DNA of 64,000 nt from Isurus oxyrinchus (taxonomy: Eukaryota), in contig JANJGN010000011.1 in NCBI GenBank assembly GCA_026770705.1, positions 112,778,001 to 112,842,000 of the forward strand. The letters are read 5' to 3'. Below the pieces are notes generated by a model. It searched no databases, was not told the origin of the DNA, and worked only from the letters and a program-made list of their open reading frames with translations. Numbering within the stretch: the first letter of the stretch is position 1; each line of letters opens with the position of its first letter. The position numbers were made by a program, and so were the translations under genes. Positions 1,483-55,450 of the stretch are shown here, one piece after another.

Positions 1483-2520
1483 GATCTGGAGAGGAACTTG
1501 CAGTGGGAGGGGGAGGACCCAACTGTCTTGGTCCATGTTGGTGCCAGCAACATAGCCAAGACAAAAAAGAAGGTTCTGCAGAGCCAGTATGAGGAGCTTA
1601 GTACCAAGTTAAGATTAAGAACCTCAAGGCTCATAACCTCTGCAGCCACGTGCAAATTGACATAGGATGAATCAGATTAGGGAGATGAAGCGTGGCTCAA
1701 AGCCTGGTGTAGGAGAAATCGGTTCCAATTTGTGGGTCACTGACACCAATGCTGGGGAAATGTAGCCTGTACTGTTGGGACAGTCTATACCTGAACTGTG
1801 CTGGGACCGGTATTCTTACAAGCCACATAACTAAGGAAGTAGAGAGAGTTTTAAATTAAGTGGTGGGGACAAGGGTGCAAATCTGGGAAGATGATGTAAA
1901 TCAAAGAGTAGAGACAAGGCAAAAGAGAAATGTGTTATTACAGGAAATGAAAAACAGGCCATGACAGGAAGAGATAGAGAGCACAAATTTAACTGTAAAT
2001 CAACAGATGAGACTAGAGGTTATCAAAAGAATAAAAGGATAAAACCAAAGGCTTTGTATCTGAATGCACAAAGTATTCAAAACAAAACAAATGAACTGAG
2101 AGCACACAGAAATAAATAAGCATGCTTTGATAGCCAATACAGAGACATAGCTGCAGGAGGACATCGGTTGGGACCTAAATATTAAAGGGCATAGGACATT
2201 TAGGAAGGACAGGAAGTGAGAAAAAAGTGGACGGGTAGCTCTGTTAGTTAACCATGGTATTAGCACAATAGAGAGGGATGTCCTAAGTTCAGGAAACCAG
2301 GATATGCAAAAGGTTTGGGTAGAGATGAGAAGTGGTAAAGGCAAGAAGTCATTTGTGGGAGTCATGTATAGGCCCCTAATAGTAGCAACATGGTAGGATA
2401 GAGAATAAAGGAAGAAATAATGGGAGCTTGTCAAAAAGGCACAGCGATAGTCATGGAAGATTTTATCTACATATAGACTGGAAAAGTCAGATGGGCAAAG
2501 GTACCCTAGATAGGCAGTTT
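1483..2520 (+). mobile_element. CR1 LINE fragment: ORF1 SGNH-esterase C-terminus and ORF2 endonuclease start
   Basis: VLVHVGASNI (VHVGTND-like) near 1525; LYLNAQSIQNK near 2053, followed by endonuclease-like remnants. Confidence 0.8.
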
Positions 2521-2559
2521 CTAGGATTCCAGTGAATCCAGGTTTCCAGTGAATACAGG

Positions 2560-5503
2560 CCTAGTCGGCCCAATCTCTTCTCATCCAACAACGCTCCCAG
2601 GAATCAGTCTGGTGAACCTTCGCTGTACTCCCTCTATGACAAGTATATCCTTTCTTAGGTAAAGAGACCAAAACTGCACACGGTACTCCAGGTATGGTCT
2701 TACCAAGGCCCTGTACAGCTGCACTATGACATTCTTGCTCCTGTACTCAAGTCCTCTCGCAATGAAGGCCAACATAGCATTTGCCTTCTTAACTGCTTGC
2801 TGCACCTGCATGCTTGTTCTCAGTGATTGGTGTACAAGGACACCCAGGTCCCTTTGTGCAACAATATTTCCCAATCTGTCACCATTTAAATAATACTGTC
2901 ATTCAGTTTTTCCTACTGAACTGGGTAACTTCAACTTTTCCACATTATACTGCATCTGCCATGTATTTGCCCATTCACTCAACCTGTCTAAATTGACTTG
3001 AAGCCTCTTAACACCCTCCTCACTACTCACACTCTTGCCAATTTTGGTGTCATCAGCAAACATGGAAATATTACATTTGGTTCCCTTATCCAAATCATTG
3101 ATATATATTGTGAATAGCTGGGTCCCAAGCACTGATCCCTGCTGCACCCCACTGGCCATATGAAAAATACCTCTTTATTCCTACTCTGTTTCCTGTCTGC
3201 TAACCAATTCGCAATCCATGTCAATATATTATCCCCAATCCCATGTGCTTTAATTTTACACACTGACCTGTTAATTGTGAATCTATCAATGCTTTCTGAA
3301 AATCTAAATACACCACATCTACTGGTCCCCCCTTATCTATTCTGCTAGTTACGTTCTCAAAATCTCCAGTCGGCTTTTCAAACATGATTTCCCTCTCATA
3401 AATCCACGTTGACTTTGTCTAATTCGTTGATATTTTCTAAGTGTCCTGTTATCAGATCCTTTATAATATACTCTAGCATTTTCCCTACTACTGATGTTAG
3501 GCTAACCGGTCTATAATTCATTAGTTTCTCCCTCTCTCCTTTTTTTAAATAGTAGGGTTACATTTGCCACCCTTCAATTTGCCAGGACTGTTCTAGAATC
3601 TTCAGAATGTTGGAAGATGACAACCAACGCATCTACTATTCCCATGGCCACCTCCTTTAGTACCCTGGGATGTAGATTATCAGGCCCTGGGGATTTATTG
3701 GCTTTCAGTCCAATTAATTTCTGCAGAGCTATTGTTTTTGTAACACTAATTTACTTCAATTCCTCCTTTGCACTAGACCCTTGGTTCCCTGGCATTTCTG
3801 GGAAGTTATTTATGTCTTCCTCCGTGATCACAGAACTAAAGCAGTTGTTTAATTGCTCTGCCATTTCCTTGTTCTCTATTATAAATTCTCCTGTTTCAGA
3901 TTGTAAAAGACCTACATTTGTCTTTGCTAATCTTTTTCTTTTTACATACTTATAGAAGCTTTTACAGTCTGCTTTTATGTTCCTTGCAAGTTTACTCTCA
4001 TGCTCTATTTTCCCCCTCTTAATCAATCTCTTGGCCCTCCTTTGTTGAATTCCAAACTTCTCCCAATCCTCAAGCTTGCTACTTTTTCTAGCAACTTTAT
4101 ATGACTGCTCTTTAGATCTAATACTATCCTTAATTTATTTTGTTAGTCATGGTTGGGCTGCTTCTCCTGTTGTCTTTTTGCACCAGGAAGGAATGTATAA
4201 CTGGTGTAATACATACATCCATTCCTTAAATTTTAGCCATTGCTTATTCACCGTCATGCTTTTTAATGAAATTCTCCAATCTACCTTAGCCAACTCACGC
4301 CTCATACCTTCGTGGTTTACTTTGTTTAGATTTAGTACCCTAGTTTCAGCTTGGACTACCTCGCTTTCCATTCTAATAAAGAATTCTTTCATATTATGGT
4401 CACTGTTCCCTAAAGAACCCCGCAGAACAAGATTATCAATTAACCCCTTTTCATTACTAAATCTAAGCCTGTTCCCTAGTCAGTTCCTCGACATACTGGT
4501 CTAAAAAACATCTTATACACACTCCAGGAACTCTTCAGCCACAGTATTATTGCGAATTTGGTTTGCCCATTCTATGTGTAGATTAAAGCCACCCATGATT
4601 ACTGTAGCACCCTTGTTATACACATCTCTAATTTCCTTTTAATGCCATCCACTACTTTATCACTACTGTTTGGAAGCCATAGACAACTTCCACTAACGTT
4701 TTCCACCCCTTGTTGCTTCTTGGCTCCACCCAGACTGATTCTACATCTGGATTTTCTGAGCCAATATGCTCTCTCACTATCGCACTGATTTCATCCTTAA
4801 CTAGCAACACCATGCCACCCCCTTTCCTTTTTGCTTGTCCGTCCTAAATATAGAGCACCCTTGGATATTCCGTTCCCAGTCTTGGTCACCCTGCAGCCAA
4901 GTATCCGTAATTGAAATCATATTGCACCTGTTTACATCTATTTGCGCTATTTATTAATCTACCTTATTGCGAATGTTCTGTATATTCAGATATAGTGCCT
5001 TTAGACTTGTCTTTTTAACATTTTTACACGTCTTTTTTGTACCATAGCCCCATTTTCTGCTAGCCCTTGTTTCCTTTGCCTTCCACTTTTGCTCTTTACT
5101 TTTCTGTCTTTCATTCCTATCTTTGTTTCCCTCTCTTGTGTCTCCCCACTCAGGTTCCCACTCCACCTGCTGACCTAGTTTAACCCCTCCCCCACATTAC
5201 TACTGAATACCCCTGCAAGGATATTGGTCCTGGTCCTGCTGTGATGCAACCCGTCCAGCTTGTACAAGTCACATGTTCCCCAGAATTGGTCTCAATGTGT
5301 CAGGAATCTAAATCCCTCCCCTCCTACGCCATCTGTCCAGCCCCACATTCACCTAGTCTATTCTATTCCTGATCTTGCTAGCATGTGGCACTGGGAGTAA
5401 TCCTGAGGTTATTACCTTTGAGGTCCTGCTTTTTAATTTACTTCCTAGTTCCCTATATCCTGCTTTCAGGACCTCATCCGTCTTTTTACCTATGTCATGC
5501 TGG
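2560..5503 (-). mobile_element. CR1 LINE, 3' part (ORF2 EN-RT and end of ORF1), interrupted by the Copia insertion
   Basis: ORFs 2581-2874 (QRDLGVLV..KKANAML..LYRALVRPYLEY..EGVQRRFTRLIPG), 2899-3159 (QGSVLG..LFTIYINDL..FADDTKI), 3751-4026 and 4954-5166 (LYLNIQNIRNK). Confidence 0.92.
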
Positions 5504-34620: not shown

Positions 34621-37012
34621 TACTGGATAGTCCCCTAGCTGTCATATGGACTGATCCTGCACCTGGATTTTCCACCCTATTCGGTGACAAGGCTGCTTCA
34701 GCAACATCGCATTACCGTTGAGTTTGGGAGATGGCCACCACCTCCCCCAAATGGTCATTTAAATAACGTTAATGAGGGAGCACTCATACAACTGAAAACC
34801 TGGTAAACTTGGAGTTATCAGAGAGGGCATTAACTGGTCCTGCATGTTCTAAAATGGCAGATCATGCACCAAATCAGTATGAGAGACTGTGACATCACAA
34901 TGTGCCCATTCTGGATGATACCAGAGCACAAACCGCATGCCCTACATTTGTACCTTGCCAGTCAGCACATGTTGCAACAAGCAGTACCACATGCAACCAG
35001 AAACATCTGATAATCATTATTTCACTTTGGGACTCCTGTAACACTCCTAGCACTTCAGAGCCTACATTTCTGACCTTAATCTTTTTAGGGTTGTTCACAA
35101 GATGTGGATGAAACAGCCAAGGCCAAATTCATTGACAGTCATCTGCTGTCCAGATGAGATCATCACAGACCAGGTGACCAGGCCAAGTCAAGACTGCATG
35201 TTTTATTTTCTGAAAGGCATTAGTGAACCAAATGCTTTTTAACAACACTCTGAAAGCTTGCATGACTATTATTTTTTCCTATTGTTCACTCAGATTTATT
35301 GAATTCAGTTTCATAAATTACCATGTAGGATTCAAACTCATGCACTGAGAATTTGCTAAGGGTGTGTCTCCTTTGGAAAAAACATTGGCTTAGATGGTAA
35401 CCGAGTTAGGTAAACTTGATAGTGTTTTAAAAATGGTGGGTGGGATCCAATTTAGAATCCCTGCCCCTATTCCCATTTCTGGCAATGTTTGCCAGCACAA
35501 GATAAGAGTGTAGGTAGCCCAACCTGCACACAGTGCTCCCCTCGTTACTGACCCTATTGGTCGTCCAACCAACACCCTCTGCCCCACCTTGTGGAGTCAG
35601 TCCCCTTTTGAAAGAATACATGATTCATGGCATTTCAGAGGAGTTGTGAACCCCAGAGGAATTCTAATCCTAAGTCAGAAACTAAAAAAGAATTCGCCTG
35701 GTCCTGAAATTTTTTTAAAGACAGGGTTTTAAATACACATAAAAAAATTGTTCTTCCAGTTTCAATAGTTAGGTGCTGTATTTGTAAGTTAGATGTGTTT
35801 TTACTGCAGTGATTCATTATAGTGCTCTGCCTGTTTATCAGTATTATGTAAGTGTTGAGATGCACTAGAATACTTTTCCCATGAGAAAAGTGCTATTATG
35901 CATTCAAAACTGAAGGAAACACAGCTTGGGAATTCAAAGTGTCATGATTTGAAATTATTTAAATCTCCAGCCCTTTAAAATTGGAAAAAACAAATAGTTT
36001 TCAGCTTTCCACTTAGTGAAAAAAAAATAGACAACTGCTGCTGGAGTGCATTGATCGACAGGCCATCTGGTGTTTCTTAGAAAAAAAGCCATTTTTTTGT
36101 GGCTTCAACAGACTTCTTTGTCTGTAAGTTGTAATGGCTTGTTATGACAACTGAGCCCATTATGAATGCTGAGTTTCAAAAGGTCTTAAACACTAATTTC
36201 AGCAGGGAACGGTTCAAAATTTGATTGGCAGTAAGATGTTATTAGAGGATTATTTATCTTTGATGTGGATTCTTAGTGGATATTTTTTTTTACAACAGAT
36301 TGATCACTTGAGTGGATTTACATCTTTCTGAATGATTTTTTTAAATGAGAGATTTCTTCTTCGGCATGTAACTGTTTGAATGACAGCTCGATTAGAATGT
36401 TACAAGTTAACTTTTTTAAATACATGGCTCCTGATGCCTGCCCATGGTAAATACTGGGTGAATGGCAATGCAAGATACATGGAGGAAGTGCAAGTTGCAT
36501 GGTTGTATGAGGGGCATGGAAGGGAAATGGGGAGTATAAGGGGGCATGGTTAACATGAGGGGGCGTGGAAGTTGGGAGTATGAGCGGGAATGGAGGGGGA
36601 ATAGGGATAGGAGGATACATGAGGGCATGCAGGGGATATGGTGGGTATGAGTGAACATGGAATTATGAGAAGGAATAGGGTTATGAGGGCTCTGAGGGTT
36701 AAGAAGGGATTGTGAGTGGGCATGGGTGCAATGAGGGGTGGCTGGTGGCATTAACAGTGAAAGTTTGAGGGTCTAACATTCATCAGTATATTGGGCCAAT
36801 GTCCCAGTAAAAAGAGGGAGGGCATTCTAGCCTGCCTGCCTCGCTATCCATATGGTCTCATTGCTGCCTTGGGCCTATCTCCAGAGACAGCGGGCTCAAG
36901 TCCAGCCTGCCCCACCTCACTGGTGTGAAAATATGGCAGATAAGATCGTTTTTAAAGGGTAGTGGTCTGCTAAGTTTGGAACTTTTCCAACTCTCCCTTC
37001 CTGCAGCTGTAT

Positions 37013-38328
37013 TATTATAATGATCTAATACCTTGGGCTTATATACTGTACAAGACAAAAGGGACCAATCGCTCATCAGGGATTGGGTAAACAGGTTGTG
37101 GCTTAATTTATTAAGACTAAGCACATGAGTACAGATATACATAGGCATAATGCTTGAAGGTATCAGAGCTGTGTGTGTGTTCTGCTCAAAGCAAAAGTGA
37201 AACTAAGACTGGACCACATGGTACATTTCCTTTCTAGTAATTTCAAAATCACTGGAACTCCCTCCCTAACAGCACTGTGGGTGTACCTACACCTCATGGA
37301 CTGCAGCAGTTCAAGAAGGCAGCTCACCACCACCTGCTTAACAGCAAGTGGGATGGGCAAAAAATGCTGGCCTATCCAGCAATACCCACATCCTTTAAAT
37401 AAATTTTTTAAAAGTACCAGCTGCATCCCAATTCAAACTGGTGAATCTTGTGGATGTCCTGACAATTCCCCTCTGATCTTCCTTCTCTGTAGTATCTGGG
37501 ATGACTGTAACTGTGGTCACTTTCATGCACTTTACTGAAGCTTCGCCTACGAAGACAAGTTGTGGCAGGAATGCACCATGGAGTAATGGTGCTGCATTTT
37601 ATTCAGTTTATTATTCAGCAAACCCCAAAGCCACCTGTTATAGCCTCAACCTTCTCTAGCCTGATTTTTAGGAATTTTTTTTTGGCTTGACTCTCCCTTG
37701 TTCACTATTGATTTGGCCCATACCCTGGTCACTCGCCCTTACTGACTGAGCTAACCTGGTGCTGGTCCTCTCGACATGCTGTTCCACTTATGGAGCTGAC
37801 AGCCTTTGCACTGCAAACTCACCATGAGGGATCCATCTGTTTACCAGCTCTTTACCTGAGCACTAGCTTGACGCTGTGTCTCCGAAGCGTTTCTTCCCAG
37901 TCATCGCACTATGTTTTAAACACTCTCCGAGGCTGCGGCTTTGTTGCAGTCTGACCAAAATGGTGGGGGTCTTCTCATGCCATGTAGCACGCTCTAAGGC
38001 TGTTCACCATGTCATACCTGTACTTAATCTTGCTGCCACCTGTCTTACCACCGCTGATCACCATGTCATGTTATTATAATGATATAACACCTTGTGCTTA
38101 TTTACTGTATAAGGCACAAGGTACCAATCGCTCATGAGGGATTGAGTAAAGACATTGTGGGCTCCTTTATTAAGACTAGGCCCATGACAACAGTTATTTA
38201 TAGGTATAAAGCTTGAAGGCACCAGAGCTGCGTGTGTCTATGTGTGTGCTCTGCTCAAAGCAGAAGTGACACTAAGGCTGGATCAAATGACACATTTCCT
38301 TTCTAGTGATGTCATGTTGCTTTCCCTT
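37013..38328 (-). mobile_element. Internally deleted LTR element with two diverged LTRs (~37013-37245; ~38072-38328 plus 42229-42245)
   Basis: Direct repeat TATTATAATGAT..ACCAATCGCTCAT..GCTTGAAGG..ACATTTCCTTTCTAGT. The second copy is split by the Gypsy insertion. ACCGCTGATCACCA near 38050-38063 may be a PBS remnant. Confidence 0.7.
37251..37412 (+). mobile_element. CR1-type LINE 3' tail
   Basis: WNSLP motif (TGGAACTCCCTCCCT) followed by FKKAAHHHL and a short 3' UTR. Confidence 0.7.
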
Positions 38329-41300
38329 TGTAATAAACTTGATGTACCAGACAGATTCCTTACTTGAAACAGTTAACTTTATTTACAGAGCTCTTGTAGA
38401 AGCTAAATGCTTGAACCAAGTCCGGAACTAGAAAGCTCCACCCCTAAGATTATCCACGCTTGGGTCTGATTCACCAGTGCAATCACCCTAAAGTGAACCC
38501 TAAAGGCAGTAGGAAAGGTTATACCTACAATCATGATATTCCTCCCTCTTGAGTTTTTTTTTACATTTCTTATTTACAAGAATATCTTAATCCACAACAT
38601 ATACATATATACATAGACCACGCGAGGTGGTTTTCTAATTCGGTTAGAGCAGCGTAGCTCTATGAGTTGAGATTCTCCCACTGGATCGACATGCAGCATC
38701 AGGGACATCCTTAAACAATGGCAGCTCAGAATTAGGTAATTCAACAGAGACATCAGGTACATTTATTCTAGGTCAATCTGGCACCTCAGGGATTAAAGTT
38801 TCAACATCAATTCCAGGTGGAATAACTGGTTGTTGAAACATCACTCTACTCCTTAAATGATCCATATGTTTTCAAACAATCTGTTCTTCCACTTCCACAT
38901 GGTATGACAAAGGCCCAGTTTCAGTGACAATTATAACAGGACACCAACTAGGTCCATTTCTAAAATTTTGCACGAAAACTGTGCCGCCCACAGTAAATCT
39001 TCAAGGTTTGCTATGAATATTATGATTCACTTCCCTGACTAGTCTGGTTCTTCTCTACCTTCCCTTCTAAATTTGGAAACACCAGACTTAACCGTGTACA
39101 TAGGGAACGTTTCATCAGTAATTCAAATAGAGTTGAACACGTAGTTGCATGTGGAGTCATATGATAATTGAGAAGAAAACATGAGATTCGAGTTTCTAAT
39201 ATTCCTTCAGATAACTTTTTCATTCCTGATTTGAAAGTTTGCACTGCTCTTTCTGCTAACCTATTGGATGAGGGATGATATGGTGCTGTTTTAATATGTT
39301 TAATTCCATTTAAATTCATGAATCCCTGAAATTCCATACTGGTGAACGCAGTACCATTATCCAAAACAATGACTTCCGGTAGGCCATGTATTGGCGCAGC
39401 TTTTCAATAGTTGCACACGATGTCAGTGATCTAATTTCATACACATCCATTTAATTAGAATGCACATCAATGATCAATAAAAACATGGTACTGAAAAATG
39501 GTCCTATGTAGCCTATAAGTAGTCTATCCCATGGTTGATCAGGCCACTCCCATGGATGCAGTGGAGCTGAAATGGGCATCTTTTGTTGTTGCTGACACTG
39601 GAGACGGTGCTTAACTATTTTTTCTATATCACTGTCTGTACCTGGCCACCTGACATAACTTCATGTCATCATCTTCATCATTGAAATGCTTGGATGCACA
39701 CTGTGAAGCTCTGTCAAGAGTGGTACTCTTTCTTGTGAAACGACAATGACTCTTGATCCCCACAACATGAGAACTTAACTCAGCTTTAGGGCATGAATGG
39801 CCTTATATCACCAGACACTGGTGCATTCAACCAACCTTGCAATACCAGGTCTCGGACTTCGGACAAAATTGAATCCCGGTTTGTCCAAATCCTTACTTGC
39901 CTCACACGGACCGATGAAGGGTCCAAGAAATTCAACACAAGTACAACTTCTTGTGGCACTGTAGCATGTACAATGCTATCTGGTAACGGAAGACGACTGA
40001 GTGCACCTGTATGTGCATAAAGGTGCATTCATACGCCGCTAAAATCAAAGCCCAAAATTGAATTCTGGCTGAGACTATTGGCAGAATTACTTTATCTTCA
40101 CTAAATAAACCCCTTAGTGGCTTATGATCCGACACAATGGTGAAATGATGACTATGCAGGTATTAATTGGATTTCTTTACTCCAAATATTACGGATGAAC
40201 CTTCTTTTTCAAGTTGTGAATAATCCCTCTTGGCTGCAGAGAGAGTTCTGGAGACATAGCTGATTAGTCTTTCGGATTTGCTTTCTGTCTTTTCTTCTTC
40301 TGTTTGCCGCAGAGTTTTGTCTCGTCCTTCATTCTGATTTCACATTCGGCCAAATTTCTCTCTGGTGAAACCTTAACATGGTTCAGTTCGGTGGTTGAGC
40401 TCCCTATGGCTTCGCTACCCACTCACATCTTGGAAAGTTCCACGACTTTTCTTTCTAATGCCTCTTGTGTTTTAATCAGCTGATTCTTCAGTTCTTCTGT
40501 CTCCTTCTTGTATCTTTTAGCTTCGTCCTGGAATATTGAACATTGTTGAGTTTTTTCTGCCAACTGTTTCTTCTGTTTGTTCAGAGTGGCACTATAGTCA
40601 TTTTGTTGCTTTTCATGATTTTCCAGTGGAACCAACTCTGACCTGAGGGATCCTTGCATCCATTGAGGGTCCTTTGATTCTCCAAACTCATTCCGAAATG
40701 CACTGTCATATCCCCTTATCAAATCAGGATCTCTTCCTATTCTCACTTGAAATATTTCTGACCATTTGAGCTTAATTGCTTTTAATCACTTGCAGCTCAG
40801 AAGTTAAGGTCCTTCACCTGTCACAATGATCACCGGAAACTGGGCTGTCTGTTGCCTGTCGAACAAATGGCCAATGGCGATTCCTTTTACCTGTATTGAT
40901 TATCCAGTGTACATCTCCATCTGAGCCGTGGTTTGCTCCAGACTCAGTGGCTGGGTACCTTCACTTGGGTTTTAAATGTGTGCTCTCCCATCACTGTGGT
41001 TAATGCTCCTGTGTCTACCTCCATGACTAGCGACTTCCCATTCACTTGAAGGGTGGTGTTGATTGGTTCATTTCTACTGCTTTGACATTGTATAGGGAAT
41101 AGAAATCAGTATCAGCAACTTCTGGTTCTGTAATATTGTGCACTTCATTCATATCTGCTATCTTATGGACTGTCTCGATTTTGCCCTGCATTGCTTTATT
41201 ACGTGCCCTTTTTTGTGGCAGTAGTGGCATTCTGCCTCCTTATATCTACAGATTTCCGGTACATGGTTACCCCCCACATTAGTGAGAAATTAATTTCTGA

Positions 41301-42223
41301 ATTGCTGGTGAGATGCTTCCAGTATGCCTTTTTGTGTTTCGAGCAGCAGAGACTTTCTTTCACTTCGCAGCTGTCTCTCTGGCTTTCATGCCACACCCGG
41401 TGGTAGGTTCCTGCCCTAACTGAAGAACAGCGCCATGTTTACATTCTGTAAAGGCTGCAAGTCCCTCACATTCTCCATTGTTAGTGCTATATCCATGGCA
41501 CGCTTCAGGTCAATATAACTTCTGCAAGTAAACAACATTGAATGGCGTCGTCGTGTACCCCGCAAACCAACCAGTCCCGCAACATGGCGTTGCGTGTATC
41601 TCTGAAATCGCAGTGCTCAGTCAACTGTTTCAACTTTGCAATATAAGTTGCGATTGACTCACCCAGGGCAGTGGAGTTGAACTTAAATCTCTGCATAATT
41701 ACCAATGGCTTTGGCTGAGAATACTCCTTCACGAGATCTACCAGCTCTTTAAAAGATTTAAAATTGGGCATGTTCAGGGCTGTCAGATGAGGTTATATGT
41801 CTTGCTCCCGCCGACACTTAAAATATCCACTTTCAGCTTCTCTGCTGTCATTTCATTCACAACATAGAAACCTAAGCACTCTATGTACTGGCTCCAGTCT
41901 TCCATAGACGAGTCATAAGGGTCAATTCTGCAAAGAGTGGCATGACTAGTGAGCATACTTTACTTTCTTTCCTTAAGAATTAATATACTGACATTCACGA
42001 GGGCAAAGTGCAGCATCGGAGCTATTTATCCTCATTGACAATTGTAATAAACTTGATGTTCTTACTACAAACAGATAACATTATTACAGAGATTTTGTAG
42101 AAGCTCCATGCTCGAACCAGGTCCACGACTGGAAAGCTTCATCCCTGAGATGACCCGTGCTTAGGGCTGATTTGTCATGTGATCCTGAAGGAAGTAGGAA
42201 AGGTTATACCTTCAATCACTACA
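38329..42223 (-). mobile_element. Ty3/Gypsy LTR retrotransposon, Mag-like, RT-less
   Basis: LTRs 38329-38538 and 42043-42223; perfect TSD CCCTT (38324-38328, 42224-42228); eroded tRNA-Ser-type PBS; polypurine tract AAGAGGGAGGAA. Domains: gag (QRFKFN..GESIATYIAKLKQLTEHCDF..LRDWLVCG), protease (MEVDTGA), RNase H (SRTLSAA..YSQLEKEG, SDHKPL), integrase (DNGTAFTS..APYHPSSNRLAERAVQTFK). Confidence 0.93.
40280..40670 (-). pseudogene. Captured host-like coiled-coil coding segment (UACA/RAI14/ANKRD24-like) replacing the Gypsy RT
   Basis: MQGSLRSELVPLENHEKQQNDYSATLNKQKKQLAEKTQQCSIFQDEAKRYKKETEELKNQLIKTQEALERKVVELSKM*VGSEAIGSSTTELNHVK. Heptad-rich with no pol motifs. Family resemblance is from memory. 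Confidence 0.65.
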
Positions 42224-42399
42224 CCCTTAAAGGCATATTATAGCACCTGCTTCCTCCACAAATATCAAACACACTGTTTGCATGTAGCTCTGCTGAGGAT
42301 CTGCCAAAGTTAAAATAATAGGGCAGGAGAAAGTCTAAGAAAATTCCCGACAATATCTCTGGGTTTCTAGTCCAGTGCCATAACTATAATACTACCAAG

Positions 42400-45502: not shown

Positions 45503-46722
45503 ATGGAGCCTGGTGACCTAGCTGCATGCCTCGTGGTGTACAGCGAACAAAGACGACTGAGAGTAGAGCAACTGAGGCACCTGGCTGTGCAGAGGGAGGA
45601 GCAGTGCCCACAGGAAGAAGGGGCAGCATGGGGTTCCCACATACACCTCCAAATAGCCACAATGAACCTTCATTGGTTGGTGCCTAGCTAGACGCTGGGT
45701 GTATAGATGCTGCCATGAATCTATGCAGATGACTAAGAACCAGTGTCATCGAAGACTGTGCATGTCAGTCACAACTGCCAGCTACTGCAGGATTTGGTGC
45801 CACAGAGACATGGAGGCCATCCATTGCCAGTGGCCATGAAAGTGACCGTTATGCTCAATTTCTACGCAAGTGGTTCCTTTCAGGGCTCCACAGGTGACCT
45901 CTGTGGGATATCACAAACCTCCACCCACAAATGCATCGATGACGTCACAGATGCCACCTTCACAAGAGCACACAACTTTGTGCATTTCCTGTGAAACCAG
46001 AAAAGCCAGAATGCCAGAGCGATTGGATTTGCCCAGGTCTCAGGTTTCCCACAGCTGCCATTGATTGCACTCACATTGCGCTCAAATTTCCGTTGAAACA
46101 CACGATCAACTATGTCAATCGCAAGGGATTCCATACTCTAGATATGCAGCTGGTGTGCGACCACCACAAACACAGCCTGCAGGTCTGTGCATGGTTTCCA
46201 GGCAGTGTGCACGACTCCTACATTCTCAGTTGGTCACAGATCCCTGAAGTCTTCCAGGGTCCACAGAAGCTGCAGGGATGTCTCCTCGGGACCAAGGGCT
46301 ACCCGCACAGGCCGTAGCTGATCATACCTGTGCAGCGGCCTCAGACTACAGCAGAGCAAAGGTATAATGAGGCTCATGCTGCAACTCACAACCTGGTGGA
46401 GCAAACCATCAGAATACTGAAAATGGGGTTCTAGTACCTGGGCTGGTCTGGTGGAGCCCTGCAATATAGTTCACAGAGGGTGTCACATCTCATCATCATT
46501 GGCTGTGCCCTTTACAAGCTGGCGCTGCAATGGGGAGAGGAGCTGGCTGAGGAGAAGCTGGATGCCTCCTTGGATGAGGAGGATGCCGACAGAGATGATG
46601 GGGAGGAGGACCTTGAAGGCGGCAATGACGGTGATAAGAGCCCTGCATTGGCCAGATGAGGCAAGCATGCTCTGGAGGCCCTCATAGCTGCTAGATTTGT
46701 TCAAGATGATGACAATATGTAG
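45503..46722 (+). pseudogene. Harbinger (HARBI1-like) transposase pseudogene
   Basis: GGHPLPVAMKVTVMLNFYASGSFQ, AIDCTHIAL, YVNRKGFHTL, FPGSVHDSYIL, LLGTKGYP, VEQTIRILK and an acidic tail. Confidence 0.93.
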
Positions 46723-49344: not shown

Positions 49345-49851
49345 TGTTACCCATTGCTGGTATATCAGGCAGTTGATAAGTTAGACAAGGAGCGGCTATA
49401 ATAGTTGATCATACCCAGGAAGGACTTGAGTTCTGTTACATTGGATGGTGAGGGCACATCTTTTATTGCCTGAGCTTTATCTTCTACTGGATGTAAACAC
49501 ATGGCATCCACCCTGTGACCAAGATAAGTGACTTCTGGCACTTGAAATGTGCATTTTTCCTTCTTTAACCATGCACCGGCTTCCATGAACTTTCTTAGCA
49601 CCTCCCCCAGGTTGGCCAAGTGTTTGGTCTCGGTTGACCCCGTGATCAGAACATCATCTAGGTATGCTACCACTCAGGGAAGTTCTTGCAAAAGACTCTC
49701 AATTGTTCTCTGGAAGATACCACATGCAGACGATACTCCAAAGGGTATGCAAGACCCTTGTGTGCGTTAATAGTCACTTATTCTCGTGACGTGCTATCCA
49801 GTTCTAATTGCTGGTAGGCGTGGCTCATATACAGTTCTGTATAGGACTTCC
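49345..49851 (-). mobile_element. Mag-like Gypsy RT fragment
   Basis: SHAYQQLEL, PFGVSSACGIFQRTIE, VAYLDDVLITG, KCTF..VTYLGH, ELKSFLGMINYY. Confidence 0.92.
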
Positions 49852-53689: not shown

Positions 53690-53757
53690 TGCTCCTCTCC
53701 GCAGATGCTGCCAGACCTGCTAAGTTTTTCTAGGTATTTTTGTTTTAGTTTTGCTTT

Positions 53758-55450
53758 CCAATCACTGTAGTTGAGGCGCCCGTATCCACCTCCATTATTA
53801 ATGGCTTCTCATTAACTTGGATGGTGACAGTGATAGGTTTGGTTTTTACAGAGGTTACGTTATACAAGGAATAAACGTCAATTTTGGCAGCTTCAGGTTC
53901 TGCTGTATTTTTTAATTCAATCATGTTGATTTGCTGCTTTATGGGCTGTTTCGACTTTTCCCTGCATTTCCTTACTACCTGACCTTTCTTATGGCAGTAA
54001 TGGCATTCTGTCTCCTTGAATTTACAGGTGTCTGGTCCGTGGTCACCTCCACATCTCTAACAACTTAATCTTAAAGTCACTGCTGAAGTATTTCTACTCA
54101 ACCTCTTCACATTTCTAGCAGCGAATATTGCATCTCGTTTTGATGCTGTGGGTCTGGTTTTCGTTCCACGCTTGGCATTAGGTTCCCACCCCACATGAAG
54201 AACAGCGCCATGTTGTACGTGTTGCAAAGTCTGGGAGTCTTTCGCCACACTTCCATGGCGAGGGAGATTTCTAGGGCGTGCTGAAAATTGATGTTGACCT
54301 CGGTGAGCAAACACCAAGTGAGTGCTGAATGGCAGCGTCATGATCTCCACAAACTATTCGGTCCCATGGCATCTCATTTAATGTGTCCCCAAAATCACAG
54401 TGTTCTGTCAACTGCTTAAGGTTCAATACATAGTCTGTGATGGACTCTCCCGGGGCCTTAACTCGGGAATTACATTTAAAATGCTACATTATTACAGATG
54501 CCTTCGGCTGGAAGTGCGCTTTCACGAGGTCCATTAAATCAATGTAGGACTTGGAATTGGGTGCACTCGGGGCCATCAGGTTGTGAATGAGATTATATGG
54601 GCAGAATATTGCGCTCATTGGGCGGGCATGCGCCGGACCTGAATGAGCGTAAAATGATGCATGATGACATCAGCGAGTGTCCCGACAGCATCGTGCATTC
54701 GGGCGATATTTCGGTCGGCGGGTGCATGGGGGATCAGCAGTGCGCTTACCGACCATTGAGTGCCCTCATAAGTCCAGTAAAGTCATAATTAAAGGAAATT
54801 TTTGCTGCCCGGCCAACCTGACAGTTGGTGGCTAGATGTATTGGCTAGGCAGGATGAGGTTTCATCGGTGATGAAAAGAAATAAAAACATTTCAAATAAT
54901 TTCTAACAGAGTCAATGAGGGGGCATGTCATTAACATTTTTAAATGCTTTTTTAAAAAAAATTCTTCAGCTCCCTGAGGCAGCACTGTGCTTCAGGGAGT
55001 TTTTACTGCGCGACCTTCCGTGCTTGGCCTCCTCCCGCCCACCCCGGCAGCGTTGCAGTGCAGGTCTCACTGGCCAGCCAGCGTGAAATCGCGGCTGGGC
55101 CCGAATGCGGGCAGTGATCCATTTCGCAGCCACTCCTACTCACCCCTGCTGAGCCCACCTGATGACCGGAAAGTCCTGGCCTATGTCTTACTGCCACATA
55201 CACTCAAAAGGGTGGCATTCTGCTTTTCCTCCGCGGTAATTTTGTGCGCTGCGAAATAAAATCCGAGGTGCTCTACACACTGGCTCCAGTCTTTCATAGC
55301 CGCATCATAAGGATCGATTCTCCCAAAGAGTAGCATGAGTAGTCTTTTCTTTTTCTTAAGTTTCAATATACTCATGGTAACAAGGTGAAGTGCAGCGTCA
55401 GAGCTATTTTACCCTCGGTGCCAAATGTAATGACTCAACTCGAGATTGTT
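53758..55450 (-). mobile_element. Mag-like Gypsy gag-protease, PBS and start of the 5' LTR (same copy as 49345-49851)
   Basis: MEVDTGASTTVIG next to 53760; LFGRIDPYD..DWSQCVE..ATLLSVCGSKTYNLI; leader and PBS similar to 41960-42042; LTR begins TGTAATG at 55426. Confidence 0.88.
54599..55181. mobile_element. Non-autonomous Harbinger MITE with TAT TSD
   Basis: GGGCAGAATATTGC...GGAAAGTCCTGGCC; TAT at 54596-54598 and 55182-55184; removing it restores the gag reading SKTYNLI. Confidence 0.88.

Follow-up and report, generated by a model that had tools for sequence, protein, structure and literature searches.

A mobilised Gypsy family of Isurus oxyrinchus without its own reverse transcriptase carries a UACA-derived coiled-coil cassette, probably acquired from a second LTR family

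The stretch of DNA analysed here (the window: 64,000 nt of Isurus oxyrinchus contig JANJGN010000011.1, positions 112,778,001 to 112,842,000) harbours an LTR element of 3,895 bp (3.9 kb) on the minus strand at 38329-42223. It has the TG...CA LTRs, the target-site duplication (TSD) within the 4-6 bp range, the primer-binding site (PBS) and the polypurine tract (PPT) expected of a Gypsy/Metaviridae element. The two LTRs (38329-38538 and 42043-42223) differ by a K2P distance of 0.19 and the 5-bp TSD is identical at both ends, in agreement with a preliminary description of the locus, which had been made from the sequence alone. The order along the element is gag, protease, linker, about 400 nt rich in E/K/Q codons, RNase H and integrase. 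The features are as follows.

42224..42228, no strand: target-site duplication, upstream copy (5 bp, same at both ends)
42043..42223, minus: 5' LTR (TG...CA), K2P 0.19 to the 3' LTR
42030..42042, minus: primer-binding site, degenerate in the window copy (comparison with 10 other family copies)
41160..41960, minus: gag with zinc knuckle, broken in the window copy (translation)
40675..41069, minus: aspartic protease and post-protease linker (PF13975, E 5e-4, below the cut-off; 77% to RT-bearing relatives)
40484..40674, minus: UACA piece 1 (host locus L031, 3165-3356; 79% nt identity over 173, extended via family B)
40382..40491, minus: UACA piece 2 (host 3798-3909; 73% nt identity over 110)
40292..40381, minus: segment X, about 88 nt, coiled-coil-like, common to family B, with a one-base frameshift near 40322
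40270..40291, minus: degenerate ninein stub, overlapping the joint to RNase H (aligned via family-B copy L182, where ninein begins at the same point)
39974..40277, minus: RNase H without its start, out of frame with gag-protease-cargo (PF17917, above the cut-off)
38700..39973, minus: integrase region, broken in the window copy (rve, E 8e-6, below the cut-off)
38539..38550, minus: polypurine tract next to the 3' LTR
38329..38538, minus: 3' LTR, paired with 42043..42223
38324..38328, no strand: target-site duplication, downstream copy (5 bp, same at both ends)

The region at 41160..41960, for which no Pfam match was obtained, is taken by us to be gag because its translation is recognizable as such. 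PF17917 exceeds the cut-off at two places (40166-40276 and 39974-40162). Direct repeats at 37012-37245 and 38071-38314 (83-86%), about 1.06 kb apart, adjoin the element and look like LTRs belonging to another, short one.

Pfam detects no reverse transcriptase (RT) in the window element between the protease (E 5e-4) and RNase H (PF17917), as had been noticed before from the lack of any RT motif, and the element is therefore without the own RT of an autonomous LTR element. Protease, RNase H and integrase follow the Gypsy order PR-RT-RH-IN, and in the relatives the RT lies at the gap. A minus-strand ORF (40423-40785) spans the junction from the pol linker to the E/K/Q-rich stretch, so that the transition indeed occurs without a change of frame. 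The start of RNase H, searched for as a pattern, occurs at 180 places in the genome, and 27 of 30 fetched loci have an RT match. The closest RT-bearing relatives are 75-81% identical to the window element on both sides of the insert; the RT-bearing relatives align up to about 40671 and resume at 40277, and one of them (L097) shows an RVT_1 match at the gap position. The spacing between the two joints is 932-1002 nt in 11 of 15 measured relatives and 392, 826, 1240 and 1317 nt in the remaining four. Because about 400 nt stand where the relatives have about 970 nt with the RT, the RT of the window element has been replaced by the cargo, rather than interrupted. The relative with 392 nt between the junction sites (L103), near the length of the cassette, is of the RT-bearing type and apparently underwent an independent internal deletion.

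The copy at 49345-49851 had been proposed as an internal control. An RT is present there (RVT_1, E 1e-8), but it belongs to a distant relative with only 66% nucleotide identity in gag-PR, and the closer RT-bearing relatives (75-81%) sit elsewhere. An insertion of 3.9 kb, bounded by inverted terminal repeats and presumably Penelope-like, divides this second Gypsy element (49345-49851 and 53750-55430); the frames of the insertion resemble an RT and an endonuclease. A Harbinger-type transposon is indicated at 45943-46314 of the window by a DDE_Tnp_4 nuclease match (E 1e-11).

The preliminary description had attributed the coiled coil to a UACA-family protein and had proposed a search for the parent gene. 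The attribution was correct: the peptide of a natural copy matches Heterodontus UACA (E 2.6e-13) in two blocks about 150 residues apart, the first piece corresponding to amino acids 954-1003, and the host UACA gene could be located in the Isurus oxyrinchus genome on C25, with an intact exon frame of 911 codons and flanking exons present. At the nucleotide level the window matches positions 3184-3356 of the host at 79% and 3799-3908 at 73%. However, the expression "captured exon" fits only in part, as the UACA-derived part of the insert is made up of two stretches internal to a single 2.7-kb exon, and the rest is not UACA. An 8-nt repeat marks the joint between the two pieces, where the frame is kept although about 147 codons are missing (host joint 3356/3798, which recurs in the families B and C described below). 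The 88 nt of X and the ninein stub follow, the tail being mostly X. A direct blastn of the window against ninein gave no match. For X, a protein search of the own genome gave no host source, the best 30 of 150 listed matches all being transposon copies, and the insert yielded only sub-threshold generic coiled-coil matches in Pfam and weak keratin matches in the PDB.

The captured pieces are 64-69% purine, and microhomology, which had been suggested as a check, is found at the junctions. The 3' joint has 9 nt common to ninein and pol and sits where ninein begins in family B; at the 5' joint 8 of 12 nt match, both pol joints being judged without simulation. Of the two lesions described earlier, the one-base shift in X near 40322 is family-wide (30 of 30 fetched group-A rows, 0 of 7 family-B rows), whereas the TGA at 40420-40422 is specific to some copies and is read through in many. 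As in LTR-mediated retrocopies, a host mRNA fragment stands in place of an internal ORF between LTRs.

The family of the window element, here called group A, is multicopy. Each of the 30 best matches that were fetched has the gag-PR-insert-RH-IN surroundings of the window element. The 5' junction motif has 78 genome matches within two mismatches, and the reversed control has none. The family thus comprises at least 78 copies; since the motif catches only 9 of the 30 fetched group-A loci, a rough extrapolation suggests about 260. Among the 14 larger loci an LTR pair was found in 11 (K2P 0.10-0.19) and a TSD was called in seven, four of these being 5-bp TSDs, all different. The junction copies, the varied TSDs and the common context bear out the supposed mobilisation, which corresponds to secondary retroposition. 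Contigs from two independent studies (run X7, guessed to be RNA, and run X10, probably DNA) bridge the junctions; they bear on the assembly and not on expression. Throughout, the analysed copies are top-scoring matches and not a random sample.

A UACA search of the genome revealed, in addition, many loci with longer UACA pieces but without Gypsy flanks, here called family B. In 9 of 14 loci the cargo is flanked by direct repeats of at least 100 nt (LTR pair), the ends are PBS- and PPT-like, and a putative gag remnant is present. None of the 14 loci has a PR, RT, RH or IN match when queried with the window peptides. Family B is a second non-autonomous LTR family. Its cargo comprises UACA pieces, the same 88-nt X, ninein and nine TPR exons, in this order. 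UACA 2359-3909 occurs in several nested deletion states, including the exact 3356/3798 joint of the window, and is followed by X, by 270 nt of ninein and then by TPR. The ninein part was recognized in a profile search (E 1e-31), while a single-copy protein search of the family-B tail had given no match; the host exon lies on C19 and is 77-83% identical to it (nt). The TPR part matches PF25481 above the cut-off, with host TPR on C16. All 150 PF25481 candidates exceed the cut-off and one is the host gene, so there are at least 149 TPR-bearing copies.

The nine TPR exon pieces extend over 17 kb in the host and are contiguous in family B. Five GT-AG introns (755-8476 nt) are exactly removed in 12/15, 15/21, 13/15, 14/15 and 21/22 copies, in total 75 of 88 measured joints. 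Because these introns are exactly absent, the TPR part was taken from spliced mRNA; the UACA and ninein pieces each lie inside one exon and intron loss was assessed on TPR only. Family B thus combines three unlinked donors (C25, C19, C16) with joints in phase, as known from maize Bs1. Of this cargo, no more than UACA, X and the stub of ninein remains in the window element. Some family-B copies (L124, L127, L129) contain a further coiled-coil-like segment Y of about 55 codons between the gag remnant and UACA 2359, possibly another captured gene. A rearranged subfamily (L048, L049, L050, L206) has UACA 3831-3909 and X preceding UACA 2424-3771, then ninein and TPR, with joints in frame.

A protein of the basking shark (P0005) led to a third set of loci, group C. 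Its members have a longer UACA piece, and share the same deletion, the same shifted X and the same two pol joining sites with group A, but their backbone is a distant Gypsy (A and C proteases are 62% identical). At the 5' junction group C (L059-L088) comes in two or more variants, and the greater part of its RH is gone. The cargo of A and C is 76-77% identical to the host. In a tree of the cassette A and C group together, apart from host and B (100/98); B is a star, so that the tree does not show A and C as nested in a deleted-B subfamily. In a protease tree, whose bootstrap is not fully settled and in which two C loci were entered twice, the A copies are scattered among RT-bearing elements (7 label changes, of which starred branches force two or more), and C stands apart as sister to other RT-bearing elements. 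From this we infer one cassette on two backbones, plus continued exchange between A and its helpers.

The preliminary description had assumed a direct capture from a host mRNA or exon. This does not agree with the fact that the same UACA deletion, the 88-nt X and the ninein stub are common to family B with its larger cargo, which makes a direct host capture by the window element unlikely. The cassette was likely obtained second-hand from family B, and the direction of transfer would be from B to A and C.

Similar cargo is found in other sharks. One Scyliorhinus torazame protein contains B-type cargo with the UACA-X-ninein joints, and Cetorhinus maximus proteins contain B- and C-type cargo. In a ninein tree (89 residues) 20 B copies fall outside a group of Isurus oxyrinchus, Mustelus and Scyliorhinus (93/86, unstarred). 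Both observations suggest that the capture is likely older than the split of those shark lineages. The proteins concerned (P0005 and P0006 of Cetorhinus, P0009 of Scyliorhinus) are annotated as "uncharacterized" or "hypothetical" and match the transposon cargo; between locus L072 and P0005 the identity is 95% over 129 residues.

Taken together, we consider it probable that the window element is an RT-less, mobilised Gypsy whose UACA cassette likely came from family B by template switching, family B having earlier gathered UACA, ninein and spliced TPR from host mRNAs. An ancestral LTR element would have copied pieces of host mRNAs during reverse transcription, a step documented for TPR and presumed for UACA and ninein. 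The cargo then became shorter by repeated in-frame deletions at short repeats, which are directly visible in the copies. Short stretches of similarity on either side of the RT would have allowed the trimmed cassette to enter a complete Gypsy pol and to found A and C. Group A would spread with RT provided in trans by close RT-bearing relatives, swapping its backbone with them, and the source elements are predicted to make a Gag-protease-coiled-coil fusion, perhaps under some selection.

A chimera of Gag, PR and coiled coil, optionally continued by RH-IN, had been proposed as the product. Its first part is retained as a prediction, but throughout the family RH-IN lies in another frame than Gag-PR-cargo (the modal offset, seen in 17 of 25 group-A copies), and the predicted product is a Gag-PR-coiled coil without continuous RH-IN. 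The shared frameshift gives a lysine/arginine-rich tail at the frame end in groups A and C. The phase between gag and protease in group A had modal offset 2 in 12 of 24 copies in an anchor test that is noisy over long distances, and was in frame in one alignment by eye; one group-C copy has a frame of 438 codons from gag through protease into the cargo.

Whether this frame was selected can be judged from the changes in the copies, with CpG-prone sites and sites with fewer than 8 copies dropped. In the UACA frame of group A, lineage-wide changes (carried by 60% or more of the A copies but by neither host nor B) are 19 N:14 S, against 130:24 for private changes. Stratified by transitions and transversions the odds ratio is 0.37 (p 0.043), or 0.44 (p 0.051) against pooled private changes; the values for group C are 0.62 (p 0.25) and 0.53 pooled (p 0.073), and 0.51 (p 0.023) for the union of A and C. 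Purifying selection on the cargo is modestly supported by these counts. RH-IN, which is out of frame, has a similar third-position excess (0.55 vs 0.33, sites with fewer than 12 copies dropped), and therefore such signals can arise without translation from the window element; recombination with helpers can explain the excess. A selected fusion protein seems to us quite possible, if somewhat short of probable, and a specific targeting role less so.

A serious alternative, which we would still not call probable, is the same history with the cargo as a neutral passenger, where A/G-rich coiled-coil mRNA simply offers template switching plenty of short in-phase repeats and the cargo protein is irrelevant. 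The purine content given above fits this, and a joint is in frame by chance in 60-67% of cases for repeats of 7-8 nt and in 67-91% for 10 nt. Furthermore one frameshift became fixed in A and C, the p values for selection range from 0.02 to 0.25, and the cargo shrank over time. On the other hand, all 11 tested joints of the non-splice or unclassified kind are modally in frame (p about 0.004-0.012 if independent, weaker for longer repeats), no stop codon is found among the family-wide alleles although 4-7% of the private changes are stops, and the shared alleles of family B are enriched in synonymous changes (ratio 0.35 for UACA and 0.17 for ninein, unstratified by transition type).

Rather unlikely, in our view, is a more far-reaching reading, that the host scaffold proteins UACA, ninein and TPR gave a synthetic coiled-coil "gene" in frame with Gag and under selection, which distant Gypsy lineages have traded from a time before the separation of two shark orders. 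Fused to Gag, it would enable elements lacking RT to assemble together with helper particles, to outcompete them or to direct them to the centrosome and the nuclear pore, ninein being a centrosomal and TPR a nuclear-basket protein.

The cargo could also act as RNA, by piRNA camouflage or as an aid in export or packaging, its frame being kept only against nonsense-mediated decay. Camouflage by captured sequence of essential genes has been proposed for plant transposons (PMC13317346). TPR, ninein and UACA are conserved genes, and in group A the frame is held while amino acids drift (32 N family-wide changes). But at 76-77% identity the A and C cargo is too diverged from the host for most small-RNA cross-targeting, and we regard this explanation as unlikely. 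Very unlikely is a capture of UACA by the window family straight from host mRNA, or by templated repair, apart from family B: the UACA homology is genuine and A and C do not come out nested in the deleted B copies in the cassette tree, but the shared deletion, the 88-nt X and the ninein stub would each need two origins. A chimeric assembly and a coiled coil of transposon origin (LINE ORF1, for instance) can both practically be discounted, because nothing was found in their favour, 78 junction copies and bridging contigs in two studies exclude a chimera, and the best matches are single-copy host genes instead of transposon proteins.

On the preferred history, that of a cassette passed on from family B, these are old, high-copy vertebrate families with intermediates leading from a three-gene cargo to a 400-nt cassette that replaces the RT. 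The intermediates would represent a fossil record of serial template switching and helper dependence. If the fusion is selected, host coiled coils would have been recruited to the transposon's own benefit. Copies have given rise to false shark gene models, as matches to the cargo occur in two "uncharacterized" proteins of the basking shark and in one protein of a catshark, and hundreds of them are UACA, TPR and ninein decoys for read mapping.

None of the papers listed in our literature search reports this cargo; Repbase or Dfam may already hold these families unannotated. The main text of the VGP preprint does not mention UACA, TPR or ninein. The overall arrangement resembles that of acutely transforming retroviruses, in which pol has given way to a coding sequence of the host within gag-pol and a helper carries the defective genome. 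The shark element differs from them as a germline Gypsy without env, and a host effect is not in evidence. Maize Bs1 (PMC13317346, PMC5131818) is similar in being a non-autonomous LTR retroelement with a hybrid ORF from fragments of three unlinked host genes; the shark elements differ in that their host is a vertebrate, each of the three donors identified encodes a coiled-coil protein, copies number hundreds and a sub-cassette was passed to other LTR lineages. In HERV-K, according to its citation in PMC5131818, a vertebrate LTR element captured host mRNA (FAM8A1) at microsimilarity, but this concerns one gene and not a three-gene in-frame cargo common to several families. LTR-mediated retroposition in animals, as outlined by Tan et al. 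2016 (PMC5131818) and with its model reviewed in PMC5408686, shares with the shark elements the replacement of an internal ORF by part of an mRNA, microsimilarity, chimeras of several genes and further non-autonomous rounds. However, the cases treated there are young and few per genome (e.g. 5 of 7 in zebrafish), whereas the shark cargo is old, found across shark orders and high-copy, with a long deletion series and backbone exchange. The mechanism is therefore already known from Bs1 and LTR retroposition, and what is unusual here is its scale and age, a cargo made up of coiled coils only, and the passing on of a sub-cassette between lineages.
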